NCBI GenBank assembly: GCA_020718085.1
Contig: DYDB01000005.1
Location: forward strand, 4,109-68,108
DNA length: 64,000 nucleotides
Direction: 5' to 3'
Source: Micavibrio sp.
GTDB lineage: Bacteria; Patescibacteriota; Minisyncoccia; Moranbacterales; GCA-2747515
A program made the position numbers and the translations under genes. The notes beneath the pieces are model-generated. The model made no database searches. It was not told the origin of the DNA and saw only the letters and a list, made by a program, of their open reading frames with translations. How positions within the stretch are numbered: position 1 is the first letter of the stretch; each line of letters opens with the position of its first letter. Below are positions 1 through 64,000 of this stretch, one piece after another.

Positions 1-1220
1 GGCACCGAGCTATTATCTTTATGATGAAATTGATCATAGTCATATCTGGCAAGACTGTGATCAGCTGTAAGAAAAATATACTCCGATTTTTCAATAAAAT
101 GTCTTAATTTTTTCCCTCTCAATTTTCTTATTGCATAAATTGCGGCAATATCATGTCGCAACGAGGCTTGCGTCTTGTCTTTTTTGCCGTAGGTCATCAG
201 ACGACTTTCTTCATCAATTCCTATCAAAACATCATTCTCACTGAAAGCATAGTCAATATCAATACCCAGCGCATTTAACTTCTCATCTATTTTTTCAATC
301 TCCAAAAAGATACTTGACTTTGTATATCCTTTTCTACACAAAACCGAATACATGGAATTAACTTTAGTCTGAGAATTATAAATACCGTAGTCGCTTAAAA
401 AGCCTTTTAGTTTTCTAATAATCTCATCCTCTGTGAAAGAAAAAATTCTTAGGTCGCAGCCAAAATCTTTAAGTATCGCAAAAATCTCTTGTGCTGGTTT
501 GTTATAGAAATCTTCATGAAAGCCCAATACGCTAAAAACCATGTTTGTATCAAGATACACGACAAGTTTATTGAATTTTGCCTTTGATTCATACCCTCTA
601 ATTAGAAGGGATCTTGAAAGAATACTTCCGTATAAAATAGACTTTAATCTTTTGAAATTAACAGGATCTGATTTCTCAGCATGCATGAAGTACTTTGCAA
701 CTTCAACCTGTAATTCATCGTTTATGTCATTTTTTGATGCATTGTCGTCACCTTCCAGATACAAAATGGCATTATGAGAATTTTTTTCAATAAAAAAACT
801 TATAGCTTTTTCAATTTGATGAATATCGTGTTCCATCTCAAATTCATCATCAAATTGTTTTTTTATATTCATAATGAGAGCCTCTTTTTCTCTTTCGGCA
901 TCTCTAAACTTTTCACATATGGCAACCTTTTCTTTTCTGCCATCATCAAGTAATTTGATTGATTTTATTGAGCTATTACGAATGTCATCAAGATAGACAA
1001 GATGCCTCTTGTGAAGTCGTTTTATTATTGTTCTAACAATATCTTCAGGCACATCAAAGCCTATTTCATCATGAATGATTTTTTGCACATCACAAATAGA
1101 TACCGCAGTATTATCAGATAAATGCTTTAATACTAGACTAGAAAAGACACTGATGACATCATTGCCATTATCATAAAATGATCTTATGGCGGCTAGTGTT
1201 GTGATTTTATTATTAGACAT
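1..1220 (-). CDS. Hypothetical protein, partial. The ATG is at 1218-1220 and the ORF runs open to the window edge (more than 406 aa). The N-terminal region shows no recognisable family. An internal 'KLVVYLDTNMVFSVLGF' segment resembles the first strand and Asp motif of PIN-like nucleases.
   Basis: Manual reverse-complement translation gave MSNNKITTLAAIRSF...LVVYLDTNMVF...LTADHSLARYD with no stop before position 1. The frame is consistent between 1220 and 540. The gene is absent from the ORF track only because its stop lies outside the window. Confidence 0.5.
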   Translation of the reverse strand, partial: MSNNKITTLAAIRSFYDNGNDVISVFSSLVLKHLSDNTAVSICDVQKIIHDEIGFDVPEDIVRTIIKRLHKRHLVYLDDIRNSSIKSIKLLDDGRKEKVAICEKFRDAEREKEALIMNIKKQFDDEFEMEHDIHQIEKAISFFIEKNSHNAILYLEGDDNASKNDINDELQVEVAKYFMHAEKSDPVNFKRLKSILYGSILSRSLLIRGYESKAKFNKLVVYLDTNMVFSVLGFHEDFYNKPAQEIFAILKDFGCDLRIFSFTEDEIIRKLKGFLSDYGIYNSQTKVNSMYSVLCRKGYTKSSIFLEIEKIDEKLNALGIDIDYAFSENDVLIGIDEESRLMTYGKKDKTQASLRHDIAAIYAIRKLRGKKLRHFIEKSEYIFLTADHSLARYDYDQFHHKDNSSV

Positions 1221-1668
1221 AAAAACTTACCAACAAATTAAAACCTCAATATCCAATGATATGAACTAATCGTATACCTACACAATTAAGTTCTTTAGTA
1301 TATAATATCAAATATACACAAATATACTAATGCAATGAAAAAAACGTCACAGAAGCGCAAAATAAGCGTTTCAGGAGTCAATGAGAGGATGATTGGCAAA
1401 ATTAGAAATGTTTCTGAGCAATACGGGATCAGTAAGCCAGAATTCACCATACATACTCCGAGTCCGGATGGCAAAATTCACTATAACTTCTTTTACTCAG
1501 CCAAAATGCCACCAATAGACTTCGGACCAAACAAACAGTCACTTGAAGTTGAAGTCTCTTCTGCTGAACAAGATAACGATAATTTATTGCATTTGTTATT
1601 ATCCTAAAAAACTCTTTCGATATGCAACAAAAAGAGGCTCGTTTAAAGCCTCTTTTTTCAAGCATTTC

Positions 1669-2862
1669 TTATAGTTTACGTTCTAGCACATCAATTCTGA
1701 CGATATTACTACACAGTTTCCACGCAGACTGATCTTTTCCTAGCTTTGTGGGATTATGTATCTCCTTTGCCCGCTCACCAATGGTTGCAGCCAGATCAGC
1801 AGATAGTGAACGAAATGTTTTAATTGGATCAGCTTTCCAAACTACCAAATTGCCTTCGACTTTAACCAAGTTACGAAATGCGGCTAAGACTGGATAAATG
1901 AACGCACTTGGAATCCTGTAATTTGCCTTGTCGGAAATAAAAATCATTTCCTCTCTATGCATTTTTGGTCGATTATTGATTTGAACAACTCCCGTTATGC
2001 CACCAAACTTACCATTCGTAGCTTTGTTATATGCATCAGGTAATTCCTTGTATATTACATCTCGCAATTCAAGTATTTTTGGGATTAGAGGAATAAATTT
2101 CTTCAACTCGGCGCGACGGTTCTTGAAGTGTTCTACGACACCTGATTTCTGGTTATATGCCATCACAGGATGTTTTTCATGATCAAAGTGATCAACATCA
2201 AAACATATCAAGTAAGACAAAATATCCTTAATGTCAACATCCTTCACCTCGCCTTTATCATCTAGCTCATATTCTTTGTATGCAATTCTGTTGGCATATG
2301 GCTTATCCTTAAGAACTTGTTTAATCTCTTCAAAGTGCTGCTTCAACTCTTCGAGACCAATAGCTTGAACTTGTGCGGATGTATTTCGTGCCAATACAAT
2401 CTCAACAGCAGTATCCAAGTCATCAATGCCCTCAATAATCTCCAAGCGAATACAAGCGTTTATATCATTCAACTCATCGGGATCTACGCTTCGAATGTAG
2501 TTTTGAATTACACGATATGTATGACCTCCATCAAGTAAGCCATGCCGTGTTTGGTCAGAAAAATATATGTCCAGCGTGTTAGTTTTGTTGTCGAACAATG
2601 CCTTTTCCACCAATAATGTTATACCTCGATTTCGGAAGAAAAATTGTTCTGGGTTATCCTCTAAAGATTTTTCAATCTTTTTGCTTACACCAGAAGTAAC
2701 CTTTGGATCTCTAGGATTTATTTTCCTCCACTCCTCAATTTCGATTGGCAAACTTTTTACCTCAGCAACTGCAATGTACGATCGAGCCACTGATTCATCG
2801 AAAGGACTTTCAATGCGTCGAAATGATTCAACTGGAATTTTAATTACCGTGCTTTTTTGCAT
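1669..2862 (-). CDS. AIPR-like (abortive infection phage resistance) family protein, tentative
   Basis: The 397-aa ORF contains the motifs 'FFFRNRGITLLV' and 'GLLDGGHTYRVIQ'. These resemble the N-terminal NxGITI and NGxQT signatures I associate with Pfam AIPR. The gene sits on a tRNA-flanked island next to a serine recombinase. Confidence 0.5.
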   Translation of the reverse strand: MQKSTVIKIPVESFRRIESPFDESVARSYIAVAEVKSLPIEIEEWRKINPRDPKVTSGVSKKIEKSLEDNPEQFFFRNRGITLLVEKALFDNKTNTLDIYFSDQTRHGLLDGGHTYRVIQNYIRSVDPDELNDINACIRLEIIEGIDDLDTAVEIVLARNTSAQVQAIGLEELKQHFEEIKQVLKDKPYANRIAYKEYELDDKGEVKDVDIKDILSYLICFDVDHFDHEKHPVMAYNQKSGVVEHFKNRRAELKKFIPLIPKILELRDVIYKELPDAYNKATNGKFGGITGVVQINNRPKMHREEMIFISDKANYRIPSAFIYPVLAAFRNLVKVEGNLVVWKADPIKTFRSLSADLAATIGERAKEIHNPTKLGKDQSAWKLCSNIVRIDVLERKL

Positions 2863-3049
2863 ATATTTATGCTTAATTTAATTAACGGGGCACAAAAAAA
2901 ACGTGCCCAATCCGCACGTTTAGTAATAAATCTATGAATATATATCATTAGGTCATTGACTAAATGTTTGCTGAGATCACTCTACAGCCTCTGCAGTTTT
3001 CACTACCAGAGTCAGTGTGCGGAGCACCACTGATTGACATAATCTTATC

Positions 3050-3540
3050 ACGAGTTTTTCACTTTGTCAAATTTGTTATCTTTACAAACTTTTCTAATTA
3101 TAGAAATATCAACCATTAGCAACCCTTTCATTTCAATATATCGAACTAAAAATGACACTTTTTTGCCATACTATACTGCAACCATTTGCAACCATGTCAA
3201 AAATGATCACAATACTCGAATCACCCTTTATTTTTCAGCAAAACTCAATTTCTGACACTCACCATTACTCACCATCTGATTGCATATTTTTTCAAAGAAA
3301 AAACCATGCTTTTTTCTTATTTTTATATATTCTACATTCCCACCATTATCCACCATTTGTTGTTGATTTAGTGGGATTGAAAATACTCTTTTTTTCTTTT
3401 ATTTTCAAGCAAAAAAGTTGTTTTTTGACTGTTCTCTATATCCACCATTTTCCACCATTATATTTTCACCATTTAGGATCAAAAATGATCCGCAAAACTA
3501 ACAAAAGATGCGTCTTATCAGGGTGGTTTTTGCACACGCT
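3050..3540. repeat. Array of about 10 degenerate direct repeats with core (C/T)CACCATT, e.g. 'tcccaccattatccaccattt' and 'tccaccattttccaccattatattttcaccattt'. It occupies a roughly 500 bp non-coding gap upstream of the AIPR-like gene.
   Basis: Read directly in the sequence at 3107, 3181, 3252, 3336 and 3440-3475. The overlapping + ORF 3152..3670 is His/Pro-rich low complexity generated by the repeat. Confidence 0.6.
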
Positions 3541-3542
3541 AA

Positions 3543-4034
3543 TCAACTCCCGCATTTTTGCAAATATGCCTTATATTCAGTCGCATAAGAATCAGCGTAA
3601 TCTTTTTCTTCTTCGTATGTGTCATCACAATCAGCCCCGCTTACATTCATTTTTTTTAGCTTCTTCTTAGCTTCTTCACACTTTTCTTTAGCCTCATCTG
3701 GACGCTTCATAATATCGTCATATTTTTCCTTGGTATATTTAGCTTTGTTTGTTTCACAGTATGCAATATCAGCAACCTGTTCCTCACTGAGTGAGTTACT
3801 AGCATTCTCTGAAGTATTTTTTATATCTTCAATTTCACCACTTTGAGTGCTCACAATTTCTTCTTGCTTACTAATTTTTTCTTGCTGTTCTCTTACTTGG
3901 TTGTTTAATCTTTCAACCTCCTGAGACAATTCTTCATTCTTTGTAGCAACAGCTTGATTTGATCTGTAGGAATAAAATCCCATAGAAGAGAGCAGGCTAA
4001 TAAAAATGACTGTGAGTATTGCAATGGCTTTCAT
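3543..4034 (-). CDS. Hypothetical secreted or membrane-anchored coiled-coil protein
   Basis: 163-aa ORF with an N-terminal hydrophobic segment (MKAIAILTVIFISLLSS), a Glu/Lys-rich coiled-coil body and paired Cys residues at the C-terminus. Confidence 0.45.
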   Translation of the reverse strand: MKAIAILTVIFISLLSSMGFYSYRSNQAVATKNEELSQEVERLNNQVREQQEKISKQEEIVSTQSGEIEDIKNTSENASNSLSEEQVADIAYCETNKAKYTKEKYDDIMKRPDEAKEKCEEAKKKLKKMNVSGADCDDTYEEEKDYADSYATEYKAYLQKCGS

Positions 4035-4123
4035 AAAATCTAAACTAATGATTATGCTATAAGTATTATTCGATGTGTAATAACGTTTAATTTTTGCATC
4101 ATAGCTTCAAACTGTTTAGTATA

Positions 4124-4690
4124 TTAGCTTTTATTAAAAATTGGATCTGACATAAATGGTCTTGCGCTAGTAAAAAATGCAACGCCATCTGGTAGATAAT
4201 AATCATACACTTGAGGTTTTGCCGTTCGATAATCAGACGAATTTTCCATGTTTTCACGATATATCATCTCGATCAACTTTCCCTCTGTTTTAGAGAAAAT
4301 AACAACTTCTCCTCTATTCAATAAGTTGGCGAAGTGATCCTGATATACCCCCATAAAAAAGCATTCACCATCTTCAAAATCTGCCATTATTTCATTCTTC
4401 GTAGTAATTGAAAGATGCGGATCATCTACATGCTTAAAATAAAAAGCAGCAAAGACATTTTCATCATTAAAGTAAGCGTTACATGTCCCAAGATCGTTTT
4501 TTAGTTTTATTTGCGTCGCTGTTTTTGAATTTCTCCCCATAGAAGAATTACGACGACTCTGAACGCTCATCGAAAAATCATCTGTTTTTTCATCGTGAGA
4601 GTTTTCATCTTTTTCTTTTTGTCGAGCAATTATATATCCAGTCACAAATGAAAGTATTAAGCTTCCCATAATCGCCAATATCTTCAACAT
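4124..4690 (-). CDS. Hypothetical membrane-anchored protein
   Basis: 188-aa ORF with an N-terminal TM helix (ILAIMGSLILSFVTGYIIA). No recognisable family. Confidence 0.45.
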   Translation of the reverse strand: MLKILAIMGSLILSFVTGYIIARQKEKDENSHDEKTDDFSMSVQSRRNSSMGRNSKTATQIKLKNDLGTCNAYFNDENVFAAFYFKHVDDPHLSITTKNEIMADFEDGECFFMGVYQDHFANLLNRGEVVIFSKTEGKLIEMIYRENMENSSDYRTAKPQVYDYYLPDGVAFFTSARPFMSDPIFNKS

Positions 4691-4747
4691 ATATGCTTAT
4701 TTTAGCTTTTATTACATTGGTTTATTGTCATACACGTATGTTGCGTA

Positions 4748-4948
4748 TCAGATATTTTTAACTTTATTTTTTAAATTTTCAAAATCGTTTCTCAGTTTCC
4801 GGTTTTTTTCTTTTAATCGTTCAATATCTTCAAAAGCACGTCGTATTTTGATCCTTACACCTCCAAGCCACATCAATCCTCCTAACAGAGCAAGAGCTAA
4901 TATCGCCCACAATACATTACCTAAAATGAACTTTATGACCATTTCCAT
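4748..4948 (-). CDS. Small membrane protein (66 aa), hypothetical
   Basis: One TM helix (LWAILALALLGGLMWLGG) followed by a charged coiled-coil tail. Confidence 0.35.
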   Translation of the reverse strand: MEMVIKFILGNVLWAILALALLGGLMWLGGVRIKIRRAFEDIERLKEKNRKLRNDFENLKNKVKNI

Positions 4949-4962
4949 ACAAAAAACGACTT

Positions 4963-4990
4963 AATAAATTAAGTCGTCGGGAAGATTTCG
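4963..4990 (-). terminator. Intrinsic terminator reading on the minus strand. A perfect 9-bp stem (cgacttaat / attaagtcg) is followed on the minus strand by a T-run.
   Basis: Plus-strand sequence is 'aaaaaacgacttaataaattaagtcgtcggg'. An A-run precedes it on plus, which is a T-run after it on minus. This implies a minus-strand transcript originating in 5000-5200. Confidence 0.45.
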
Positions 4991-5287
4991 CTTGAGTGGA
5001 CGACCCGACGGGACTCACACTCAAAAAGCATTAAATGCTCCATCATGTGCATCGAGCCGCCCGCTAAAGGGCGTGATGGAGCCTTAAAAATCCGGATTAA
5101 ATCCGGTGCCTATTGAGTATGAGTCCACATATAACGTAACATTTATTACATCAAAATACAACTTTTTGCGCCCGCCACATCCTTCTTATTTCTAAATAAT
5201 TAAAACATTGTTACAATGTACTCATGCAATCGCCAATCTTGCATATATATCTATATACTTATAGTTCGTACCCCTCTCCCTCTAATT

Positions 5288-7057
5288 ATGGATGATATAA
5301 AAAATCGCCAAAGGCCACTAAAAGTTGCCTTGTACATCCGCGTATCTACGGAAGAACAAGCTGAAAAATACGGACCAGAGCTTCAAAAAGATGCCCTGAA
5401 CGGCCTTATTAAGTCCAAAGGGCTTCTCCTGAACGGTAAACCATCGTACGTTTTAGCTGGTGAAAAATATATTTACTCTGATAGAGGCGTTAGTGGCACT
5501 ACGCTTCTTGATGAACGTCCGGAGTTTGCTCGTATGAAAGAGGACGTCTTATTGTCTTCTGAAGATAATAGGCCTTTTGATATTGTCGCCGTATATAAAA
5601 TTGATCGATTTGCTAGAAAACTTACTATACTTCTTGATATCATTGATTTTTTTGAAAGCTACAACATTGGATTTGTCTCTGCCACAGAGAGCATAGATAC
5701 ATCCACACCTTTCGGACGCGCGATATTGAATATCATTGGCGTTATTGCAGAATTGGAAAGAGAAACAATCAAACAACGCACCCAAGCCGGTCGCGAACAA
5801 GCTGCCAAAAGAGGTGTTCTTATGGGCTCATTTTCAGCATATGGTTATGTAAAAAACAATGAGAAGTTCCCTATAATCTTTGAAGAAGAAGCAAAAATCG
5901 TACGTGAAATTTTTGATCTTTTTGTGAATCAAAAGAGATCCGCATATGAAATTGCACAACAGCTTACCTCTAACAAAATACTTTCCAAAGAAGCATCCGC
6001 CGTACAGCATGAAAAGAAAAAAGGTGATATAAAAAAGAAAACCAACATCTTCTTTTGGCGCGATGAAGCAGTGCGCAACATTCTTCGAGATGAAATATAT
6101 ATCGGAAAACTCTATTACAACAAAGGCACGAGAGGTAAAATTGCACCGAAAGAACAATGGAAACTTGCTGAATATGAAGTGCCCCCGATTATTGATGAGC
6201 TTACATTTGAAAAAGCTCAGAGCCTCTTGGAAACATCAAAACATGAGAAAAAACATACGAGAAGTAATCATACATACCTTCTCAGTGGCCTTTTGCGTTG
6301 TGATTCATGTTTTGATGAGTCACAGGATGTGCGAGGTCGCACTCATTGGAACGGTGATCGAAAGAAAGTCAAAAAATCTGGCAGATTTACTTATTCCTAC
6401 AAGTGTGGTCGCAAAAATCCTTCAAAACATGAAAAAAGATGTCACACAATCCCTCTTCCTGCCCATGAAATCGAAAAGTATATCATCGATTTTTGCAAAA
6501 AACTTATTAAAAATCCTGTTGCCGTCTACAATCACCAAATTAAATTACGCTCATCCAAAACGGCAATCAAACATCTTAAAAACAAGGAGGATGAGATCCG
6601 TAAGGCGCTTAGAGCTCTTCCAATCCAAAAAGAACGCCTTTTAGAACAACACCAACATGGCTATATGGATAGCAAAACGCTGGATAAGCGCATCAGGGAT
6701 ATACATACACGCGAATCTGAGTTGAAAAAAAGACAGAATGAGCTTAAAAAGGAGATCTCCCAAAATATACTATCCGAAGAATACAATAAAACTCTACAAT
6801 TATTCTCTGAAAAATATAAGAATGACATTGAAAAAATACTCGTTGATCGATCAAAAACCTATGAATTGGTCCACCTTCTCATTGAAGAAATTATTGTATA
6901 TTCACGCCCAGTGAAAGATACTGACAAAATCGCCGGAATACGAAAAAAGGATCAAAAGATCCCTTTCCGTATTCATATTAAGTTGAAGTTACCCCAAGAG
7001 ATTCTACAGGACCTTACGGACCAGTTCGGGGTAAAAAATACTCCTTTGAGCGGGTGA
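5288..7057 (+). CDS. Large serine recombinase (integrase)
   Basis: The N-terminus 'LKVALYIRVSTEEQ' is the catalytic-serine resolvase/invertase motif. A roughly 590-aa body with Cys pairs (CDSC...CGRK..C) matches the recombinase and zinc-ribbon domains of large serine recombinases. The ORF-track start at 5216 is probably an upstream extension; the likely start is MDDIKNRQ at 5288. The stop at 7055-7057 overlaps the 3' end of tRNA-Gly. Confidence 0.85.
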   Translation: MDDIKNRQRPLKVALYIRVSTEEQAEKYGPELQKDALNGLIKSKGLLLNGKPSYVLAGEKYIYSDRGVSGTTLLDERPEFARMKEDVLLSSEDNRPFDIVAVYKIDRFARKLTILLDIIDFFESYNIGFVSATESIDTSTPFGRAILNIIGVIAELERETIKQRTQAGREQAAKRGVLMGSFSAYGYVKNNEKFPIIFEEEAKIVREIFDLFVNQKRSAYEIAQQLTSNKILSKEASAVQHEKKKGDIKKKTNIFFWRDEAVRNILRDEIYIGKLYYNKGTRGKIAPKEQWKLAEYEVPPIIDELTFEKAQSLLETSKHEKKHTRSNHTYLLSGLLRCDSCFDESQDVRGRTHWNGDRKKVKKSGRFTYSYKCGRKNPSKHEKRCHTIPLPAHEIEKYIIDFCKKLIKNPVAVYNHQIKLRSSKTAIKHLKNKEDEIRKALRALPIQKERLLEQHQHGYMDSKTLDKRIRDIHTRESELKKRQNELKKEISQNILSEEYNKTLQLFSEKYKNDIEKILVDRSKTYELVHLLIEEIIVYSRPVKDTDKIAGIRKKDQKIPFRIHIKLKLPQEILQDLTDQFGVKNTPLSG

Positions 7058-7121
7058 AGGGAATCGAACCCTCGTCCTCAGCTTGGAAGGCTGATATAAT
7101 AAGCCACTATACGACACCCGC
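7049..7121 (-). tRNA. tRNA-Gly (anticodon TCC)
   Basis: Reverse complement is GCGGGTGTCGTATAGTGGCTTATTATATCAGCCTTCCAAGCTGAGGACGAGGGTTCGATTCCCTTCACCCGCT. The acceptor stem is GCGGGTG/CACCCGC. The anticodon stem is TCAGC/GCTGA with loop cTTCCaa. The T-loop is GGTTCGATTCC. CCA is not encoded. Confidence 0.85.
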
Positions 7122-9304: not shown

Positions 9305-11065
9305 ATGTCTGAAAAAATTATACACATCACACCAACTGTCACTGTCAAAAAATTCGCCGAGATTTTGGAAATGCCGGCAACCGCAGTGATTACAGAGCTT
9401 ATGAAGAATGGGATCATGGCCACGATCAATGAAGAGATCGATTTCGATACTGCATCGATCATTGCTGAGGATCTCGGATTTCATGCTGAGGAAGATCTTG
9501 AGATTGGTGATGACGAGATGCTCACAATCGAAAAATTACTTGATATTTGCAGCAAAGAAAAAACTTCCGGCGAAAAACTGGATGCACGCCCTCCGATCGT
9601 TACAATTCTCGGACACGTTGATCATGGAAAAACCACCTTACTTGACACAATTCGTAAAGCATCTGTCGCAAGTGGTGAGTCTGGTGGGATCACACAACAC
9701 ATTAGCGCATATCAAGTCAAAAAACGCGGTAAAGTACTCACCTTTATTGATACTCCCGGACATGAAGCATTTTCTGCAATGCGTGAGCGCGGTGTTTCAA
9801 TTGCTGATATTGCAATTCTCGTAGTTGCAGCAGATGATGGTGTACGTCCGCAAACACGCGAGGTTATCACTTATCTCAAAGAAAAAGGCATTCCAACACT
9901 CGTGGCAATCAACAAAATTGACAAACCAAACGCCAATACTGCACGTGTGAAACAAGAACTTGCAGAACTTGAGATCGTTATTGAGGAATGGGGTGGCAAA
10001 GTCATGTGTAATGAAATCAGCGCAAAGAACAACATTGGAATCACAGACCTTTTGGAAAGTATCATCCTTTTGGCGGAAGTTGAGGATTTCAAAGCAAACG
10101 AAAAACGTGACGGACTTGCCGTTGTATTGGAATCACACAAAGATGATCAAAAGGGTCCTGTGGCAACCGTTGTTGTCAAAACAGGTACATTGAAGGTTGG
10201 CCAAGATATCAATGTAGGAAAAACATATGGACGCATTCGCCATATGGCGGATTATCGTGGCAATACGATTGAAAAAGCAACGCCTTCCATGCCGGCAACG
10301 ATCTTTGGGCTCCTCGACACTGCAGAAACCAACGACATCGTTCAGGTCGCAAATGCCAAGCGTAGCGCTCGCCTCAAATCACGTGAAATGGCAATTCGTC
10401 TTGCAGGTGACAAGAAAACGGTTAAGAGCATCACAGATAACGATGGTGTCCCTAAATACAACATTATCATCAAATCTGATGTGCAAGGATCGATTGAGGC
10501 AATTCAACAGATCCTCGACACAATTCCTCAGACAAAAGTTGCGATTAGTTTTATCGATACCGGTGTAGGTAATGTGACAGAATCTGATATTAAAATGGCA
10601 CAAAGCTCCGAAGCAACCATTTATGGTTTTAACGTCACTACCAGTCCTGTGGCTAAACGTATGGCAGAAGATGCGAAAGTAACAGTGCTTAACTACAAAG
10701 TAATCTATGAATTAGTTGATCACATCAAAAATACACTCCTCTCGATGTTACCGGATGAAATTGAACGCACCGACGTCGGTGAGTTGGAAGTGCTTGGTAT
10801 TTTTCGTACAGAAAAAAAGCAAATGATCGTTGGCGGACGTGTTAAAAAAGGCAAGGCTGTTGCCAAAGATGCAAAGATCGATGTATATAGAGGTGAAAAC
10901 CTTATTGGCACGGGCAAGTTGGCGAACCTCCAACACAATAAGGTCAATGTGGATGAAGTAAAGAGAGATCAAGAATGTGGCATCACATTTGATGGAGAAA
11001 CCAAGATCAAAGCTGGTGACACATTTAAAATGTACACAGAGATCCTGAAAGAAAAAGCTTTATAA
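9305..11065 (+). CDS. infB: Translation initiation factor IF-2 (short form)
   Basis: The G1 motif 'GHVDHGKTTLLD' is present, along with 'DTPGHEAF' and 'NKID'. The C-terminal beta-barrel domains are present. Confidence 0.95.
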   Translation: MSEKIIHITPTVTVKKFAEILEMPATAVITELMKNGIMATINEEIDFDTASIIAEDLGFHAEEDLEIGDDEMLTIEKLLDICSKEKTSGEKLDARPPIVTILGHVDHGKTTLLDTIRKASVASGESGGITQHISAYQVKKRGKVLTFIDTPGHEAFSAMRERGVSIADIAILVVAADDGVRPQTREVITYLKEKGIPTLVAINKIDKPNANTARVKQELAELEIVIEEWGGKVMCNEISAKNNIGITDLLESIILLAEVEDFKANEKRDGLAVVLESHKDDQKGPVATVVVKTGTLKVGQDINVGKTYGRIRHMADYRGNTIEKATPSMPATIFGLLDTAETNDIVQVANAKRSARLKSREMAIRLAGDKKTVKSITDNDGVPKYNIIIKSDVQGSIEAIQQILDTIPQTKVAISFIDTGVGNVTESDIKMAQSSEATIYGFNVTTSPVAKRMAEDAKVTVLNYKVIYELVDHIKNTLLSMLPDEIERTDVGELEVLGIFRTEKKQMIVGGRVKKGKAVAKDAKIDVYRGENLIGTGKLANLQHNKVNVDEVKRDQECGITFDGETKIKAGDTFKMYTEILKEKAL

Positions 11066-12047: not shown

Positions 12048-12950
12048 TTAATTTTTATGATCAAAAAGCGATGTGCTCACATATTTTTCCGCACGATCCG
12101 GAAATACTATCACGATACGCGCTTTATCAACTTTTTTAGAAATTTCACGTGCCGCAACAAGTGCCGCACCACTGCTCATACCTACAGAAATTGCTTCTAC
12201 ACGCATAGCAAGTCGCGACATATCGAATGCATCCTCTGACTCTATCATAATTTTTTCATCAATGAGCGATATATCATAAATTGCCGGTACCAACGCTTCT
12301 TCTAGATTCTTCAATCCTTGAATATAATGCCCTTTTACAGGATGCGCTTCCACAACTTTGATTCTTGCATCGTGATCTTTTAACCCTTTACCAATGCCCA
12401 TGATCGTACCGGATGTGCCCAGTGATGAAACAAGATAGTCAATACGCCCACCCATCTGTTTCCAAATTTCCTCCGCTGTTGTACGATAATGCGCCATTTT
12501 ATTATATGCGTTGGAAAATTGATCAGGATTAAAATATTTATGCGGATATTTTGCTACAAGTTCCCGTACACGAAGAATTGCGCCATCCGTACCTTTTGTG
12601 CCATCCGTAAGAATGATTTTCGCACCATATGCCTTGATCATCTTCTGACGCTCCACGGATACCGCGCCACTCATCACAACGTGCACCTCATATCCTTTGA
12701 TCGCACCGATCATTGCAAGTGCAATACCCGTATTACCGGATGTTGCCTCAATGATGATCTTATCTTTTGTCAGCCTTCCTTCTTGCTCCCCCTGTTCTAT
12801 CATGGCAAGTGCAATACGATCTTTGATTGAACCGCTGGGATTTTGCCCCTCCAATTTTGCAAAAACTTCCACTCCTTCTTTTTTGATCACGTGATTAATA
12901 CGAACCATCGGCGTATTTCCGATCAAACCCAACACATTTTCATATATCAT
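12048..12950 (-). CDS. cysK: Cysteine synthase (O-acetylserine sulfhydrylase, PLP-dependent)
   Basis: 'SSGNTGIALAMIGAIKGY' and 'SVKDRIA'-like 'SIKDRIALAMI' are hallmarks of the CysK/CysM family. Confidence 0.85.
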   Translation of the reverse strand: MIYENVLGLIGNTPMVRINHVIKKEGVEVFAKLEGQNPSGSIKDRIALAMIEQGEQEGRLTKDKIIIEATSGNTGIALAMIGAIKGYEVHVVMSGAVSVERQKMIKAYGAKIILTDGTKGTDGAILRVRELVAKYPHKYFNPDQFSNAYNKMAHYRTTAEEIWKQMGGRIDYLVSSLGTSGTIMGIGKGLKDHDARIKVVEAHPVKGHYIQGLKNLEEALVPAIYDISLIDEKIMIESEDAFDMSRLAMRVEAISVGMSSGAALVAAREISKKVDKARIVIVFPDRAEKYVSTSLFDHKN

Positions 12951-17695: not shown

Positions 17696-20338
17696 CTACC
17701 CCGAACAACTCACGCACACATTCTCACTTTTTTGTACTTCCCCGGACAAACTACGCACATAATACACCGTTTTGATCTTTTTTTGCCATGCATGCATATA
17801 ATAATCATACAATTGTTTTGGGCTCGTGCGCGCAGGATTGATCATCCACTCAAAACTGATTGACTGATCCACCCACTGATAGATCACGCTCATCATATCG
17901 ATCACTTCCGTCATATCCATTGATACATATTCTTTGTAGTACCAATAATTTTCCTTATTTAGTTTTGGTGCAACACGCACGGTCGGTGCAGAGAGATTTG
18001 TTTCCACAAAATATCTCTTGTAAATAGGTAACAGTGCAGCTGTTGTTCCCACAACTCCCGCAGTTGATGTATTTGGTGCCGGAGCTGTATGATATCCAAA
18101 CCGTAAGCCTGTTTTTTTCATATCCGCAAAAAGTGATTTCCATTTCTCGCCTCGCTTTGTGTTTTTGACATACCATGCCTGTTTGCGACCCAAAAGAATG
18201 CCTTTGCTATATTCACTCCCTGAAAAAAGCTCATATGCACCACGCTCCTTAGCCAGATTTGCTGACGTGCGGTATGTATAATATGTATATTTTTCAAACA
18301 AAACGTTCACTGCATCACGCGCCTTTTGTGTCTCATATGCAATCTTACGTGTAGCCAAGTATTCTGCAAGTCCCAAAAAACCCAATCCCACACTACGATA
18401 TCTCATTGCTGTACGCTCCGCCTCTTGAATGGGATAGTAGTTGAGCGTGATCACATTATCCAATACGCGCATCACTGTCGGCACTACATCCGCAATCGTT
18501 TTTTCATCATAAACTTTTGCCACATTGATCGATGCCAAGTTACAAACAACAAAATCTCCAGGTTCGTATCGAATCACAATTTTTCCATCCTCGATCTTTT
18601 CCTCAATGAACTTTGACGGCGATGTATTCTGACAGATCTCTGTGCACAGTTGTGAGCTATAAATATTTCCTGCATGCTTATTTGGATTAACGGCATTGAT
18701 CGTATCACGGAAAAATGTATACGGCATGCCCGTTTCTACAGTTGCCTTGAGAAATTTTTTGAACAACTCTTTTGCATCCACCGTCTTTTTCAGTGAAAAA
18801 TCCTCTTTTTCCAATTTCTCATAAAATATATCGAAGTCTTTTCCAAAACAATCTTGTAATTTCTTGCCATGCTTTTTTTGAATTTCATATGGATCAAATA
18901 ATGTCCATTTTCCATTTTCTTGCACACGTCGCATGAAAAGATCAGGCACAGAAATTGCCGGAAAAATATCAAATGCTTTTGCACGAATGTCTCCCGTTTC
19001 TGTCTGCAGATCCAAAAAATCATAAATATCCGCGTGCCACACATCCAGCGTTACTGAAATTGCACCAAGACGCGATCCTAACTGATTTACCGCAATTGCC
19101 GTATCGTTGATAATTTTGACCCATGGATTTACCCCGCCTGATGAACCATATACACCACGAATCGCACTTCCACGTGCGCGAATATTACCCATATACACAC
19201 CCACACCCCCACCAAACTTTGAAATTTGCGCCATATTTTCAAAACTGTGATAGATCGCCCGCAGATCGTCATCCACATTTGCCTTGAAGCAGCTGGAGAG
19301 TTGATGATAATTTGTGCGTGCATTTAGCAATGTTGGTGTTGGCAATGATATGCGTTGCTGTGAACAGTGTTCGTAGATCTTAAATGCAAACTTTAAACGA
19401 TCCTCATCTTTTTCCGGAATTGCCAAAAAAAGTGCAACGGACATGTACATCTCCTGTGGCAATTCACGTATTACACCATTTGGATTGAGCAAATATCGCT
19501 TGTCCAAAGACAATACCGTCGTATATTCATACGACTTATCTGTGTCTTCGGAGAGAAGTTTTCCCGCTTCCAAAATATCTTTCTCAGAATAATATTTATA
19601 AAAATCCTTATAATACAAACCCTCCTCAATATACATGTCAAAAAGATCTTTATATGCTTGTGGTGTATAAAGTTCTTTCATTGTCATTTTACGATTACGT
19701 GTCGCCTTTTTATAGAGATTGCTCACAAAAACGCGTGCCGCAACATGTTGCCAGTGCGTATTTTCCACACTTACAAGATCAATGCATGTTTTAACAATGA
19801 GCTTATTAATATCAGACGTTTTTATATCCTCCACAATGTTCTTTTTGAATGCTTCCACAAATTCTTTAAATTTGCATTCTCTCCTATATCCAATCGTCGC
19901 ACGGTCAAAGACCTTTTTAATTTTATCAATATTAAAGGATTCTTTTTTACCATGATCTTTAATTACTTTCAACGTTTGGTGTTCAAATTGTTCTATGAGC
20001 AATTGTTCTTTTTTGGCACGATCTTCACTCCTCTCCGCTCGATACAAGATATACGCCTTAACCACCTCGTATTTGTTTACACGCACCAAATGTCGCTCTA
20101 CGATATCCTGCACTTCTTCCACCGTGATAATTGATTCGCATTGTTCCTCGCTATATACAAAATTGATTTCTTGCATAATGTCATCTGCAAGCGTCACAAT
20201 AAATGATTTATCACGCTCTCCCACTTCATCGCATGCTTTCTCTATCGCCCGTTCGATCCTGGCACGATCAAACGCAACGATCTTTTTATTGCGCTTTTCA
20301 ATTTTTGTTATTGTCATATGTTTGTGTTTAAGGGTCAA
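17696..20338 (-). CDS. nrdA: Ribonucleoside-diphosphate reductase alpha subunit with N-terminal ATP-cone
   Basis: ATP-cone segment 'IEKRNKKIVAFDRARIERAIEKA'. Active-site region 'SQLCTEI' and 'CNLASINV'. Confidence 0.9.
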   Translation of the reverse strand: MTLKHKHMTITKIEKRNKKIVAFDRARIERAIEKACDEVGERDKSFIVTLADDIMQEINFVYSEEQCESIITVEEVQDIVERHLVRVNKYEVVKAYILYRAERSEDRAKKEQLLIEQFEHQTLKVIKDHGKKESFNIDKIKKVFDRATIGYRRECKFKEFVEAFKKNIVEDIKTSDINKLIVKTCIDLVSVENTHWQHVAARVFVSNLYKKATRNRKMTMKELYTPQAYKDLFDMYIEEGLYYKDFYKYYSEKDILEAGKLLSEDTDKSYEYTTVLSLDKRYLLNPNGVIRELPQEMYMSVALFLAIPEKDEDRLKFAFKIYEHCSQQRISLPTPTLLNARTNYHQLSSCFKANVDDDLRAIYHSFENMAQISKFGGGVGVYMGNIRARGSAIRGVYGSSGGVNPWVKIINDTAIAVNQLGSRLGAISVTLDVWHADIYDFLDLQTETGDIRAKAFDIFPAISVPDLFMRRVQENGKWTLFDPYEIQKKHGKKLQDCFGKDFDIFYEKLEKEDFSLKKTVDAKELFKKFLKATVETGMPYTFFRDTINAVNPNKHAGNIYSSQLCTEICQNTSPSKFIEEKIEDGKIVIRYEPGDFVVCNLASINVAKVYDEKTIADVVPTVMRVLDNVITLNYYPIQEAERTAMRYRSVGLGFLGLAEYLATRKIAYETQKARDAVNVLFEKYTYYTYRTSANLAKERGAYELFSGSEYSKGILLGRKQAWYVKNTKRGEKWKSLFADMKKTGLRFGYHTAPAPNTSTAGVVGTTAALLPIYKRYFVETNLSAPTVRVAPKLNKENYWYYKEYVSMDMTEVIDMMSVIYQWVDQSISFEWMINPARTSPKQLYDYYMHAWQKKIKTVYYVRSLSGEVQKSENVCVSCSG

Positions 20339-44889: not shown

Positions 44890-45114
44890 ATGTTTCCCAT
44901 TCTCGCACTCGTATACATTGCATTTATTCTTCTGATCGTCATATCGAGTTTTTTTATTGTGACGCGCCTGCAAGAATATTCTATTAACCCGACATTTACT
45001 AAGCCGCTTATCATCATGTTTGTCATTGTCACGATCATTTTGATCATTGTAAATTTCTCTTTTTTTGTAGCAATTCCTTTTGATGAAATGTTCTATAGTG
45101 ATAATTTATATTAA
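44890..45114 (+). CDS. Small membrane protein (74 aa)
   Basis: Two hydrophobic helices. Confidence 0.35.
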   Translation: MFPILALVYIAFILLIVISSFFIVTRLQEYSINPTFTKPLIIMFVIVTIILIIVNFSFFVAIPFDEMFYSDNLY

Positions 45115-45119
45115 AAAAT

Positions 45120-45680
45120 ATGAGACCAATTGATTATTATTTTTCTTTACAAAGCGGCAACGAAAAGATCCTGCGCATCATTCATCGACACTGGTTCAAT
45201 ATTGTAATTCAGTTCATCCCAATTTTTGCGTTGCTTGGCATGATGTTTTTGAGCATTGTGCTATATCCATACATTTTTACCGAATTCATCGACGAAAGTG
45301 CCCGCATACTTTTTTATTTTTTGCAAACGTTTTTTGCTCTATTAATGTGGATATATGGTTTTATTATCTGGTTTGACTATTATCTCGACATTTGGATCAT
45401 GACCACCGAACGCGTTGTCAATGTTGAGCAGAAAGGACTTTTTTCACGCCAAGTGAGCGAGCTTAAGTATCGCATGATCCAAGATGTATCTACAGATGTG
45501 AAAGGATTCTTTCCGACAATACTCAATTTTGGTGATTTGACGGTTCAAACGGCGGCTGAACAATCGCGATTCATGTTTCGTTCTGTCGGCAATCCTTATC
45601 ACATCAAAGCAGAGATTATGGCGCAACAAAAGAAAAAGAGCATGGAAGGCGTTACTTCCGTAAAGTTTGATCAATCGTAA
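45120..45680 (+). CDS. Membrane protein with bacterial PH-like (DUF304/bPH_2-type) architecture
   Basis: 'ILRIIHRHWFNIVIQF' followed by two TM helices and then a soluble domain. Confidence 0.45.
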   Translation: MRPIDYYFSLQSGNEKILRIIHRHWFNIVIQFIPIFALLGMMFLSIVLYPYIFTEFIDESARILFYFLQTFFALLMWIYGFIIWFDYYLDIWIMTTERVVNVEQKGLFSRQVSELKYRMIQDVSTDVKGFFPTILNFGDLTVQTAAEQSRFMFRSVGNPYHIKAEIMAQQKKKSMEGVTSVKFDQS

Positions 45681-45787
45681 AAACCACTTTGGGAAGACGA
45701 CTTTTGACATTTAAGATAGTTTTGTTAGAATAAAAAACTATATAAAAAGTACGAGAGCAGGGATCGCATCTCATAAAATCATATTTT

Positions 45788-51932: not shown

Positions 51933-53342
51933 ATGTTTATGTTGTTTTCCGCAAGCAAAAAGATTCTCGGGATGAATGCACGCAATCTCACCTACATTCG
52001 TCCAAATAATCGCAAAAAAGCGAAACGCCTTGCCGATGAAAAAATTACATCAAAGAAATTGCTCAAAAAAGCGGGAGTGCCTGTTCCGCGACTGATCGCA
52101 CAAATTTCTTCCCGTCGAACTTTGGAAAATTTTGACTGGACTATTCTTCCACCAAGCTTTGTACTTAAACCGAATCGCGGTTTGGGTGGTGATGGCATTA
52201 TTGTGGTATATGGTAGAAAAAAAGGTTCTACAGATACATGGGTGAGATCCAATGGCAAGCCAATCACGATCACAGATCTCAAAATGCACATCGGACATAT
52301 TCTTGATGGTGAATTTTCTCTTTCGGGCACACCGGACTTTGCTTTTTTTGAAGAACGTCTTAAACTTTCCAAAGAATTTCGCCCCTATGCCTACAGAGGA
52401 ATACCAGATATTCGTGTGATCGTTTATAATAAAGTTCCTGTCATGGCAATGTTGCGACTTCCGACAAAGGAGTCCGATGGAAAAGCAAATCTCCAACAAG
52501 GAGGAATAGGCGTGGGAATTGATATGGCTCGTGGTATCACTACAACGGCGGTGCAGGGGAAGTCACGCATTGTGGAGTACGTACCTGACACGCGACTTTT
52601 GCTTTCTGGTATTAAAATTCCTTATTGGGATGAGATTCTTCATCTTGCCATTAAATCACAAATCGCTTCGGGACTTGGTTATCTCGGTGCAGATATTGCG
52701 ATCGATCGTGACAATGGGCCAGTAATACTTGAACTTAATGCACGACCAGGTCTTTCCATTCAAGTTGCAAATCTCGCTGGACTTAAACGTCGTCTTGAGC
52801 GTGTAGAGGGACTCAAAATCAATACCATTGCTCGAGGCATTGCTGTTGGTAAAAATCTTTTTGGCGGTGAGATCGAAGAAGAACTTGAAAGTGTTTCAGG
52901 GAAAAGCGTCATCGGTCCAGTGGAAAAAGTTGAGATCATTGGCATCGCAAATAAAAAGATAACCACACAAGCAAAGATCGACACTGGCGCATATTCCACA
53001 TCAATCGACACTGAGCTTGCCCGTGAACTTGGCTTTGGACCAACAATTGATTCATTTGCCAAGATCGACCTCACGGAGTTTGGAGAAGTCACTGAAAAAG
53101 GCCTCGGGATAGGCAAAAAGATTGAAAAAAAATATGGTAGTCGCATCCCTCATCTCATTGAAACATCCGTAACATGGTCTTCCAGCGGCGTCACAATTCG
53201 TCCGATCGTAAAACTCACATTTGTCATGGACAAAAAATCCATCACAACAAAAGTGAACATCGTGGATCGCAGCGACCTAAAATACAATATGATCATCGGT
53301 AAAAGAAACCTTGGAAAATTTCTTGTAGATGTCAGTAAATAA
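51933..53342 (+). CDS. ATP-grasp ligase (alpha-L-glutamate-ligase-related / RimK-like) fused to a C-terminal retropepsin-like (DUF785/RimB-type) domain
   Basis: The N-terminus 'LGMNARNLTYIRPNN...LLKKAGVPVP...FVLKPNRGLGGDGIIVV' has an ATP-grasp core. The C-terminus 'QAKIDTGAYSTSI' is a D-T/S-G-A aspartic-protease-like motif. Confidence 0.7.
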   Translation: MFMLFSASKKILGMNARNLTYIRPNNRKKAKRLADEKITSKKLLKKAGVPVPRLIAQISSRRTLENFDWTILPPSFVLKPNRGLGGDGIIVVYGRKKGSTDTWVRSNGKPITITDLKMHIGHILDGEFSLSGTPDFAFFEERLKLSKEFRPYAYRGIPDIRVIVYNKVPVMAMLRLPTKESDGKANLQQGGIGVGIDMARGITTTAVQGKSRIVEYVPDTRLLLSGIKIPYWDEILHLAIKSQIASGLGYLGADIAIDRDNGPVILELNARPGLSIQVANLAGLKRRLERVEGLKINTIARGIAVGKNLFGGEIEEELESVSGKSVIGPVEKVEIIGIANKKITTQAKIDTGAYSTSIDTELARELGFGPTIDSFAKIDLTEFGEVTEKGLGIGKKIEKKYGSRIPHLIETSVTWSSSGVTIRPIVKLTFVMDKKSITTKVNIVDRSDLKYNMIIGKRNLGKFLVDVSK

Positions 53343-53450
53343 AAGATCATTTTTTTAGACACATATCCTGTGATGTGTCCAATCTGTCATATGTAGACAT
53401 AATCGACACTTCTCTTTTTTACTACTGATATATTTTTATACACACTTTTT

Positions 53451-54338: not shown

Positions 54339-54348
54339 GATCATCTCT

Positions 54349-57991: not shown

Positions 57992-58135
57992 ATTGTGTAA
58001 ATTATTTTTTACGAAAAGAAATTTGCGCTTATTATAACACGATCACATAATAATGCTTTACAAAAAGGCTTTTTTTCTTTATAATACATTAACTTCGTTT
58101 TCAAAAACACAATAAAGAGTGTATGATAAAACCAT

Positions 58136-62234: not shown

Positions 62235-62265
62235 ATGTGTGTATTTTATGATAATTTATATATTT

Positions 62266-63720: not shown

Positions 63721-64000
63721 TACATTTCACTAATCATTTATTACATTGATACAGTTTCCGTGTAAAGAATTACCCCTATTTAATCCTTTTTACCCACAAA
63801 AACATGTGACTTTTTTGTTATCCACATGATATCCCCATATCAGTGAGTGCATTTTGCCACGTGTTCATTAGGAAAATTATAACACCGTTCCCCTATTACA
63901 CAAAATATAGCTAGTTATCCACAGTTTGTGAACAACCTGTGGATAACTAGCTATATTCCCCGATAAGTTTACCTATATAATATTGACTTCTTTCATTTGA
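63721..64000. other. oriC candidate: perfect DnaA boxes TTATCCACA at 63818-63826 and an inverted pair at 63915-63923 / 63938-63946, in an AT-rich region upstream of dnaA
   Basis: Seen directly: 'ctagttatccacagtttgtgaacaacctgtggataactag'. Confidence 0.65.

Follow-up and report, generated by a model that had tools for sequence, protein, structure and literature searches.

Can a large serine recombinase (LSR, serine integrase), and not a tyrosine recombinase, be the enzyme that places an island at the 3′ end of a tRNA gene? The question is raised by a 64,000-nt stretch of DNA (hereafter the window) from a groundwater Candidatus Moraniibacteriota-like ultra-small bacterium of the candidate phyla radiation (CPR), in which an LSR gene runs into a minus-strand tRNA-Gly(TCC) gene. 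An earlier, sequence-only reading had taken the genes to the left of this tRNA for an accessory element integrated at its 3′ end and mobilised by the serine enzyme, and both proposals are upheld here: window positions 1–7049, together with 896 nt to their left, very probably constitute a 7.9-kb integrative element that was inserted by its own LSR just past tRNA-Gly(TCC). The element is bounded by attL and attR, has a low GC content, is absent from a relative and shares its layout with a whole family; the LSR is its only recombinase and its att sites are of the LSR type. The domain content of the protein, its overlap with the tRNA, the inverted arms, the GC contrast, the absence from a syntenic relative and the family-wide pattern were observed directly; from these data we infer that the element may still be active and what its cargo may do.

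The analysis was centred on positions 1–7121 of the window and on the leftward extension of this piece in parent contigs. The window starts 4,112 nt into NCBI contig JAEMOL010000024.1 (GCA_017973795.1, 76 kb), which carries the integrase sequence. A groundwater contig from ENA with the same integrase sequence (L002) reaches 68 nt further left than the NCBI contig, and a window coordinate equals the L002 coordinate minus 4180. Assignments of cargo open reading frames (ORFs) are based on PADLOC, Pfam and PHROG profile scans, RNA calls on Rfam and ARAGORN.

The serine integrase and the tRNA-Gly gene

The tRNA-Gly(TCC) gene was placed on the minus strand by ARAGORN and Rfam in agreement (Table 1), and to its right lie genes of an FNR-like protein, a DsbA-like protein, IF-2, the CCA-adding enzyme and RNR, the housekeeping genes that had been noted on this side. 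The ORF of the integrase spans 5216–7057 (+), and in an alignment with 23 homologues the ATG at 5288 emerges as the true start. The product matches the Pfam domains Resolvase (PF00239, E 6.5e-34) and Recombinase (PF07508, E 1.9e-22), the recombinase zinc-ribbon match being below the cut-off (18.6 vs 25.3 bits). The catalytic serine motif YIRVSTEEQ, from which the gene had first been recognised as a serine recombinase, is present together with these domains; R18, V19, S20 and T21 are at least 90% conserved among 24 homologues, and C338, C341, C373 and C385 are invariant in the homologue alignment. The gene product was also matched to the PHROG annotation integrase (E 5.6e-106) and, in the PDB, to catalytic domains of serine recombinases and integrases, including 3guv, TP901-1 integrase (3bvp) and gamma-delta resolvase.

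The AlphaFold2 model of the protein, built from the homologue alignment, comprises a catalytic domain, a long αE helix, a recombinase domain (RD), zinc-ribbon strands and a long antiparallel coiled coil. A helix at residues 141–175 is followed by a mixed α/β domain at 187–317, which corresponds to the RD, and then by β strands at 336–373 and antiparallel helices at 410–456 and 462–493, which correspond to the zinc-ribbon domain (ZD) with its inserted coiled coil. Judged by its sequence and predicted fold, the protein is an LSR, with a nucleophilic serine in the catalytic domain, an RD after αE, a four-Cys zinc ribbon and a coiled coil. The sole long C-terminal segment of low confidence in the model, predicted to be disordered, covers residues 573–589, and these are encoded by one arm of the recombination site described below (the P arm).

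The gene ends with the codons ...CCT TTG AGC GGG TGA. Its TGA (7055–7057) lies inside the 3′ strand of the tRNA acceptor stem, with an overlap of 9–10 nt between the two genes, which confirms that the end of the recombinase gene and the tRNA's 3′ end share DNA. The stop codon is tRNA DNA, because AGCGGGTGA is the reverse complement of the discriminator and the acceptor 3′ strand. Among the integrases of PLSDB plasmids and of 50,697 deposited phage genomes, none is more than 31% identical to this one. No tyrosine recombinase was found by domain scans of the element, the only recombinase being of the serine type.

Ends and surroundings of the element

A direct repeat of the tRNA-Gly 3′ end had been predicted to lie further left. 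It was not found: even when 3 mismatches are allowed, a second copy of the tRNA 3′ 23-mer is absent both from the window and from the adjoining 4.2 kb on the left (L002), and TTTGAG is all that the two ends have in common. A long tRNA-derived direct repeat should not in fact exist, because serine integrases need only a 2-bp core, and the diagnostic feature of the element ends is an inverted pair of arms, P and P′. The two arms, GGAGTCTTTTTCACCCCGAACT (L002 3287–3308) and AGTTCGGGGTAAAAAATACTCC (L002 11203–11224), are inverted relative to each other, agree in 20 of 22 positions and are separated by 7,894 nt, and the right arm is formed by the last ten codons of the integrase gene. When the 28 nt adjoining the tRNA were used in an ungapped scan, 21/28 was reached at the far arm, the maximum over 50 shuffled queries being 19. 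GA is found at both junctions with mirrored GTTC/GAAC motifs 20 nt away, and the hexamer TTTGAG, which includes this core GA, stands in direct orientation (+ strand) at both. By the centre of arm symmetry, attR can be laid out as AGTTC, 20 nt, GA and tRNA, and attL as terminator hairpin, GA, 20 nt and GAACT. A scan for this geometry (the same dinucleotide, 19–21 nt and GAAC) gave 7 upstream candidates, the two highest scores against the P arm being 16/20 and 10/20. The best candidate places attL at L002 3282–3283, window −898/−897 or about 3214–3215 of JAEMOL010000024.1, so that the far att site is outside the window, as had been thought. Core to core the element measures 7,946 nt (window −896 to 7049), and 896 nt of it lie left of the window.

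One may ask whether so close a pair of inverted repeats does not bound an invertible segment, flipped by a serine invertase as a phase-variation switch. A serine recombinase does stand beside an inverted pair that matches at 20/22 and lies 7.9 kb apart. Against this, the core GA and the hexamer TTTGAG are direct and not inverted at the two ends, the outer halves of the two sites are unrelated (terminator vs tRNA), the protein has the RD, ZD and coiled coil of integrases instead of the helix-turn-helix (HTH) of small invertases, and the segment is absent from the relative described below, so that we regard inversion as extremely improbable. An asymmetric core in direct orientation implies integration and excision, not inversion. 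Equally improbable is a classical tRNA island of a tyrosine integrase that was since lost, with the serine recombinase as incidental cargo or as a resolvase. It would suit an accessory gene set that is lower in GC and lies by the 3′ end of a tRNA; however, no tyrosine recombinase is present, the tRNA 3′ segment has no direct repeat, the integrase gene itself forms one att arm, and the stop-in-tRNA overlap recurs in 15/16 relatives with five tRNA types.

The element is set off from the chromosome also by composition. Its GC content is 35.1% (34.3% without the integrase gene) against 39.5% in the 57 kb right of the tRNA, a comparison which the sequence-only reading had asked for; none of 98 sliding windows of element length there is as low (minimum 37.3%). 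The 3.3 kb left of attL have 39.1% GC. The claim that everything left of the tRNA is accessory is thus true up to 0.9 kb beyond the window start, but the helicase gene further left has host-like GC and is syntenic in an element-free relative. This relative, the complete 1.29-Mb Ca. Moraniibacteriota genome CP175956.1 (locus L180), holds, identical copies apart, the nearest homologue of the left-flank helicase (62% identity), and the gene order there matches that of the window: helicase, tRNA-Gly(TCC), FNR-like, DsbA-like, DUF4446, IF-2, PALP, CCA-adding enzyme and RNR small subunit, with 52–77% amino acid identity between the shared flank proteins. None of the eight element genes gave a tblastn match in the syntenic locus, and the helicase–tRNA distance is 0.98 kb there vs 8.1 kb in the genome under study. 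Homology is recognisable in L180 upstream of the helicase as well, and it takes in the terminator hairpin by which attL is flanked on the left.

How the element would have been inserted can be proposed from its ends. The reconstructed attP reads ggaccAGTTCggggtaaaaaatactccttt GA gagggagtctttttcacccc GAACTccccc, an imperfect palindrome of ~50 bp whose arms match in silico at 16/20 around GA, as would be expected of an LSR with short att sites; the reconstructed attB consists of the tRNA terminator hairpin, GTTT GA and GCGGGTGAAGGGAATCGAACC of the tRNA. The predicted junctions are ggaccagttcggggtaaaaaatactccttt GA gagggagtctttttcaccccgaactccccc for attP and aaagccccataaaatgggacttttttgttt GA gcgggtgaagggaatcgaaccctcgtcctc for attB. 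In the B arm, CGAAC of the tRNA T-loop starts 15 nt from the core, as compared to 19 nt in the P and P′ arms. For LI integrase it was reported that the ZD motif is shifted ~5 bp inward in attB, which is the basis of attP/attB discrimination and of directionality (Rutherford 2013, PMC3783163), and the spacing of 15 vs 19 nt fits this model. The free element would carry a pseudo-palindromic attP of ~50 bp, AGTTCGGGG-N16-GA-N16-CCCCGAACT, with the last ten integrase codons as its left arm, and an integrase dimer on attP would pair with a dimer on attB. The right half of attB would be provided by the tRNA acceptor 3′ strand and T arm, in which the universal T-loop GTTCGA would serve as distal motif 4 nt nearer the centre than in attP, and the left half by the tRNA's own terminator hairpin. 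Strand exchange is predicted at GA, that is at tRNA positions 74/73 (position 74 and the discriminator), a crossover that would leave the tRNA gene unsplit; the exact position, like the roles of the half-sites, is deduced from the arms. With exchange at 74/73 the whole tRNA would be preserved, and only its trailer and terminator would be displaced, by 7.9 kb. After integration the integrase ORF would enter the tRNA and stop at the acceptor-stem TGA, which gives 589 aa, and across the reconstituted attP it would continue to 640 aa; that this difference is relevant to regulation is a speculation. Excision would need recombination of attL with attR and a directionality factor.

Several observations weigh against this account. 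The left (B′) arm of attB lacks the mirrored GTTC motif, except in L003 (a related locus, Table 1), and the crossover was placed by means of symmetry and shared bases and not by a product that had been observed. The L180 site is no clean attB, since a 0.76-kb insert with a 181-aa ORF lies between the homologous terminator and the tRNA; the search for an empty site in related genomes thus led to a syntenic locus that lacks the element but carries an insert of its own. An empty site of the same organism was not found, exact look-ups of the FNR-like gene, the helicase and the integrase leading to occupied contigs only, and a metagenome scan with the predicted attB 28-mer gave nine unrelated tRNA-Gly loci that share no genes with the window. 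Neither exact nor degenerate attP patterns revealed a circular attP junction in IMG/VR, and among the genes of the element none was identified as one for a directionality factor, for replication or for transfer.

These last points lead to the question of whether the element is a fixed remnant that is no longer mobile, its integrase being kept for another role or simply undecayed and the locus being by now ordinary chromosome. All three assemblies from this project that have the element show the integrated form, attB or attP junctions were not found and a directionality factor was not recognised. However, the integrase ORF is not truncated and retains every invariant residue for catalysis and zinc binding, the two att arms have kept a good match (16/20), the GC content is not ameliorated, and the cargo of relatives at the same kind of site differs, which argues for recent turnover. 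On balance a dead remnant appears unlikely.

A further point against the 7.9-kb extent is that the island may be composite, because a second 34-mer with a P′-like arm lies 2.3 kb further left. This 34-mer (terminator and TTTGAG, L002 984–1017) is 88% identical to the first and is followed by GA, 21 nt and GAAC. The mobile unit would then be larger, with ~10.2 kb between the P′-like arm (L002 1018) and the tRNA and with the SNF2/ResIII helicase as a part of it, and what stands at L002 3284 would be an internal junction of two elements in tandem at tRNA-Gly. In L180, three copies of the same 22-mer arm lie left of tRNA-Gly in tandem units that resemble cassettes, Logan contig L181 (10,245 nt) begins exactly at the outer TTTGAG, and the helicase has defence-type domains. 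In contrast, the GC content of the helicase region is host-like (39.1%), in the element-free relative the helicase and its upstream region are syntenic beside tRNA-Gly, complementarity to the integrase P arm is seen for the inner arm (16/20) but not for the outer one, and L181 runs unbroken through the right junction, where a circular form would need a break. The composite unit is in our judgement quite improbable, and a circular 10.2-kb form, which L181 had brought to mind, was discarded as unsupported for want of that break. L181 (Logan ERR628383_15988), a de Bruijn-graph contig from the same sample, equals L002 1012–11256 and ends 27 nt into the tRNA. Its right end is explained by tRNA sequence common to other genomes in the sample; its left break implies a branch at the outer module, which could be a repeat or a variant.

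The outer module (L002 984–1042, window about −3196 to −3138) lies left of the helicase and consists of the 34-mer and then GCCGAGTAGGTAATGACGTTCGAAC. Modules of this attL-like kind are palindromic and ~110 nt long, with a tRNA-3′-like fragment, a hairpin terminator and then GA and GCCGAGTAGGTAATGACGTTCGAAC. From GA onwards the GCCGAGTAGGTAATGACGTTCGAAC arm resembles the tRNA-Gly arm with TCGAAC 5 nt further out, and it looks like a P′-type (attP-type) half-site for the tRNA-Gly arm, with no integrase nearby. In L180 the 22-mer arm stands at 9806–9827, 12365–12386 and 18965–18986 (two exact copies and one with one mismatch), each time after a gene and a hairpin, so stacked left of tRNA-Gly that gene cassettes are separated. 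It is 22/22 identical in two genomes with flanking helicases that are 62% identical, and it is absent from the 57 kb right of the tRNA. The arm could mark older integrations, integrase-less cassettes or an unrelated repeat. The left-flank helicase itself (L002 1141–3111, 656 aa) combines ResIII/SNF2 with INT_rpt ('integrase repeat') and the treble-clef zinc finger DUF4379, has 4,004 matches at E≤1e-30, is very common in CPR genomes and scores well against the type IV restriction and PbeA models of PADLOC.

The integrase family and its tRNA sites

Homologues of the integrase number more than 1,000 at E≤1e-10 across CPR/Patescibacteria. The best 120 are 48–63% identical over nearly the full length, with Parcubacteria, Levybacteria, Minisyncoccia and similar CPR bins among their named sources. 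A family set was made of the window locus and 15 fetched loci with an LSR of at least 38% identity, and the integrase stop overlaps a minus-strand tRNA 3′ end in 14 of these 15 further loci (15/16 with the window), the overlap being 3–90 nt. The tRNAs at the 14 overlapping loci are Gly-tcc (3), Gly-ccc (1), Phe-gaa (1), Val-tac (3), Val-gac (1), Lys-ctt (3), Lys-ttt (1) and Leu-cag (1). As a control, 108 more distant LSRs from the same scans with at least 150 nt of downstream sequence were taken; ten of them show a stop-in-tRNA overlap and the other 98 do not. Overlap in 14/15 related loci vs 10/108 distant LSRs means that it is not due to chance. Clades of the LSR track tRNA identity, with pairwise identities of 57–76% in the Gly-tcc clade, 60–72% in one Val clade and 55–59% in the Lys/Leu clade.

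Far junctions of the same geometry were located in six more loci (Table 1), in which the core is identical at the two ends and the outer flank is a terminator hairpin. In the seven loci the core is always the complement of tRNA positions 74/73, namely GA where the target is a tRNA-Gly and GT where it is a tRNA-Phe or tRNA-Val. The cargo of the sister elements differs and includes AbiTii, AAA_15/AAA_21 ATPases, SNase and DUF4238.

AGTTC, usually as AGTTCGGGG, stands exactly 20 nt before the core in every family locus, and the same arm bases are translated as Q-F-G-V in the window, G-S-G-Q in L177 and V-L-A-E in L004. Protein tails were compared for 102 of the 120 best homologues, those with the LKLPQ anchor, and in 97 of the 102 a translation of AGTTCGGGG was recognised in one of three frames (FGV-type in 45, SSGQ-type in 47 and VRGE-type in 5). 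Many tails run on as translated tRNA, e.g., ...LWARRDSNPH or ...GGNRTP. That AGTTCGGGG keeps its distance from the tRNA while its reading frame varies among three points to selection on the DNA site; a motif of this behaviour has the look that would be expected of a recombination-site arm embedded in a gene.

The ten distant LSRs with an overlap (L015, L025, L027, L045, L054, L058, L065, L067, L075 and L078) are 25–30% identical and form their own groups. They come from Peribacteraceae, Gracilibacteria, Oscillochloris, a metagenome-assembled genome of Pseudomonadota and Bdellovibrionales, and they end in minus-strand tRNA Met, Arg, His, Ala or Leu, mostly with an overlap of 21 nt; in the Bdellovibrionales group AGTTCG is nearer to the core (~17 nt). 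With such sources as Bdellovibrionales and Oscillochloris, the habit of ending in a tRNA therefore extends beyond CPR.

A single family member has no tRNA after the integrase stop, L093 (IMGVR_UViG_3300020195_001091, 10,084 nt), whose LSR is 47% identical. At 9924–9975 it has a P arm and then GTGAG with a poorly matching GAAC-containing stretch, and among its cargo are genes for a Fic/HTH protein, an IS1595 transposase and an HTH_7 protein. A free form is conceivable for L093, as is insertion at a site other than a tRNA gene; the poor complementarity of its putative P′ arm to its P arm weighs on the former idea.

A second motif of the GAACT/AGTTC type was seen close upstream of the integrase start in many loci, 30–60 nt from it in L005 (~9945), L006 (~2710), L007 (~2285) and L011 (~2735). 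It reads TTACCnnGAACT in the Lys/Leu clade and tAGTTCGTACCCC in the window (5266–5271), has no core at the distance of an att arm, and may be an integrase-binding operator for autoregulation. Integrase-only minimal elements of 1.8 kb at Lys/Leu sites, which TTACCnnGAACT had suggested, were rejected, the core being absent at the required distance and better P′ candidates lying 3.5–11.8 kb away.

Cargo, known systems and significance

Table 1. Features of the element and its tRNA site in the window, with the far junctions of related loci.
Feature	Position or extent	Strand	Basis
Integrated element, in-window part	1–7049	.	P/P′ arms, geometry scan, GC, absence from syntenic locus L180
tRNA-Gly(TCC), intact, integration target	7049–7121	-	ARAGORN (7048–7121); Rfam tRNA model 61.6 bits, full length
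Large serine recombinase (serine integrase), 589 aa	5288–7057	+	Pfam, PHROG and PDB matches, AlphaFold2 model, alignment
P arm of attR, AGTTC + 20 nt, within last ~10 integrase codons	7023–7047	+	Complementary to P′ arm L002 3284–3308
Predicted crossover dinucleotide GA, complement of tRNA positions 74 and 73 (discriminator)	7048–7049	+	Same register at attL/attR in 7 loci
B arm of attR: tRNA acceptor 3′ strand, T stem, T loop	7050–7069	+	Sequence, arm comparison
656-aa cargo protein, N-terminal 406 codons in window	3–1220	-	Full ORF L002 3430–5400(-); gene 3′ end left of window
90-aa ORF	1335–1607	+	Called as gene in public contigs; no family matches (Pfam, PADLOC, PHROG)
AIPR (abortive-infection phage-resistance) family protein, 397 aa	1669–2862	-	PF10592 E 7.1e-29
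Iteron-like repeats in 680-nt intergenic region	3176–3476	.	Sequence, Tandem Repeats Finder
163-aa protein, N-terminal hydrophobic segment and coiled coil	3543–4034	-	Weak coiled-coil-type matches only: Rz-like spanin 7e-5, LmuB/JetC
188-aa protein, N-terminal hydrophobic segment	4124–4690	-	No matches (Pfam, PADLOC, PHROG)
66-aa single-pass membrane and coiled-coil protein	4748–4948	-	Weak DivIC-like match below cut-off
Conserved, apparently structured non-coding region upstream of integrase gene	4952–5100	+ (strand not established)	Alignment with L003, L175
Far junction L003	8.6 kb		P/P′ arm 13/20
Far junction L173	6.1 kb		P/P′ arm 11/20
Far junction L175	10.2 kb		P/P′ arm 12/20
Far junction L010	7.2 kb		P/P′ arm 16/20
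Far junction L177	6.0 kb		P/P′ arm 15/20
Far junction L004	7.8 kb		P/P′ arm 12/20

The leftmost cargo gene, part of which is encoded left of the window in L002 together with the SNF2/ResIII helicase and a secreted Fib_succ-domain protein, had been called PIN-like. Its 656-aa product has no Pfam, PADLOC or PHROG match and nine detectable homologues only. The AlphaFold2 model (mean confidence score pLDDT 77) shows an N-terminal winged helix, a central α/β domain and a coiled coil of ~150 residues; the top Foldseek matches of the central domain are PIN proteins (2fe1, 1v8o, 7vwo), and the model also matches winged-helix proteins of the PadR/MarR type, in both cases weakly (E 0.03–0.3). The PIN-like call is plausible at the level of the fold but finds no echo in the profile scans. 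The AIPR-like gene, in contrast to this, was clearly confirmed by Pfam, and its product has further matches to PHROG 'Abi alpha-like' (9.8e-8) and, weakly, to PADLOC AbiU. The 90-aa ORF could conceivably encode a small regulator or a directionality factor. The three small secreted or membrane ORFs (163, 188 and 66 aa) are present as described before, each with an N-terminal hydrophobic segment.

What had been taken for a repeat array is not tandem. It consists of dispersed, iteron-like doublets of a ~10-nt (C)CACCATT unit at 3177, 3257, 3340 and 3441, spaced 80–100 nt apart, and of one single copy (~3466); Tandem Repeats Finder reports three of the doublets as 1.9-copy arrays of period 10. The repeats resemble iterons or an operator array, and no Rep-like protein was recognised in the element beside them. 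The non-coding region at 4952–5100 is homologous to L003 9670–9815 and L175 9725–9885 in elements of the Gly clade; its fold has 33 predicted pairs, 5 of which show compensatory changes in an alignment of three sequences only, and it has no Rfam match at E≤1. It could be a leader, a small RNA or a regulatory site. Among the cargo ORFs no virion, packaging, lysis, conjugation or replication gene was found by PHROG, Pfam or PADLOC, the weak coiled-coil 'spanin' match being the only exception, and PADLOC calls no complete known defence system in the cargo, the AIPR match being clear and the PIN-like one weak. From its gene content and its size of only 7.9 kb the element looks like a small defence or addiction module or island and not like a phage. 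Elsewhere in the window, further 1-kb bins with a GC fraction of 0.35–0.36, as low as in the element, were noted at 45001–46000, 53001–55000, 57001–58000 and 62001–64000, and these may be other accessory regions.

To which known systems does this element come closest? With the phage-type LSRs (A118/LI, TP901-1, phiC31, Bxb1, SPbeta) it shares the order of domains, from the catalytic domain through αE and the RD to a zinc ribbon with an inserted coiled coil, as well as short att sites, an imperfectly palindromic attP around a 2-bp asymmetric core, an integrase gene that adjoins attP, and a distal motif nearer the centre in attB than in attP. Unlike theirs, its target is the end of a tRNA gene and not a protein-coding gene, one of its attP arms is within the integrase coding sequence with a stop codon provided by the host, and the cargo of its family is a non-phage island of 6–10 kb. 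The closest functional analogy is the staphylococcal cassette chromosome SCCmec, whose large serine recombinases (CcrAB/CcrC) insert a non-phage cassette at the extreme 3′ end of rlmH/orfX without inactivating it, and which forms tandem and composite arrays at this site. Both systems place a cargo cassette at the 3′ end of a conserved housekeeping gene, but the SCCmec recombinases belong to a different clade, the target is protein-coding, the ccr genes are internal and there is no att overlap.

Islands and prophages of tyrosine integrases at tRNA/tmRNA 3′ ends (Islander-type) are alike in that the integrase abuts the tRNA, tRNA function is kept and the cargo is accessory or defensive. Their enzyme and its chemistry are, however, unrelated, and they duplicate 15–50 nt or more of the tRNA as direct repeats, whereas the ends of this element share only 6–8 nt and its predicted crossover falls after the discriminator. 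As for the overlap of integrase gene and att site, the closest analogy is offered by archaeal integrases of the SSV1 type, in which attP lies inside the integrase gene, a tRNA is the target and integration alters the integrase reading frame. These are tyrosine recombinases, unlike the enzyme studied here, and their gene is split into two large parts, whereas here the last codons and the stop change (589 vs 640 aa).

Association of serine integrases with tRNA genes was touched upon in surveys. The main survey of integrative elements, TIGER, describes serine integrases (S-Int) as 'not known for targeting tRNA genes'; it located 14 of its 297 S-Int islands at genes for t(m)RNA and remarked that 'experimental proof will be required' (Mageeney 2020, PMC7192596). 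An LSR was reported in ~3% of tycheposon-like elements of Prochlorococcus (bioRxiv 10.1101/2020.12.28.424599). Those cases resemble the present one in being tRNA-associated by bioinformatics; they were given as counts, without att anatomy, family definition or integrase/att overlap, unlike the element family described here. In the large LSR catalogue of Durrant et al. tRNA does not come up at all, and a full-text literature search yielded no description of the integrase family or of a comparable overlap between integrase and attP.

The element itself is a cargo island of ordinary size, and the interest lies in its integrase family, a widespread, uncharacterised clade of serine integrases that is dedicated to tRNA gene ends and carries an attP arm in its own last codons. 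Only tentatively, and as a possibility that we hold for less probable than its opposite, a broader picture may be drawn, in which a large undescribed clade specialised on tRNA ends would combine state-dependent C-termini with a platform for cassettes. As parts of this tentative picture, the universal T-loop and acceptor stem would be the attB half-site, tRNA identity would have been switched between clades, and the same layout would hold in the distant relatives from Gracilibacteria, Bdellovibrionales and Oscillochloris. With attP embedded in the integrase 3′ end the C-termini would differ between the integrated and the excised state, and it is possible, within the same picture, that this difference is a built-in sensor of state. 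Likewise, the integrase-less attL-like modules may be cassettes that were accreted or mobilised in trans, which would make an integron-like platform of a serine integrase.

tRNA genes are the classic landing pads of tyrosine integrases, and a serine-integrase family found there would widen the target range of the serine enzymes; a coherent family with readable att anatomy makes tRNA targeting by serine integrases directly testable. Where attP and the 3′ end of the integrase gene overlap, a constraint at the level of DNA is clearly seen, a case of dual coding in which one motif is read in three frames. Serine integrases are preferred tools for the insertion of large DNA in genome engineering, and the T-arm/acceptor half-site, which is present in every genome and varies predictably between tRNAs, provides a natural series for studying and re-targeting their specificity. 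For the CPR bacteria, in which mobile elements are poorly known, the element gives a view of mobile DNA and of the traffic in defence genes.

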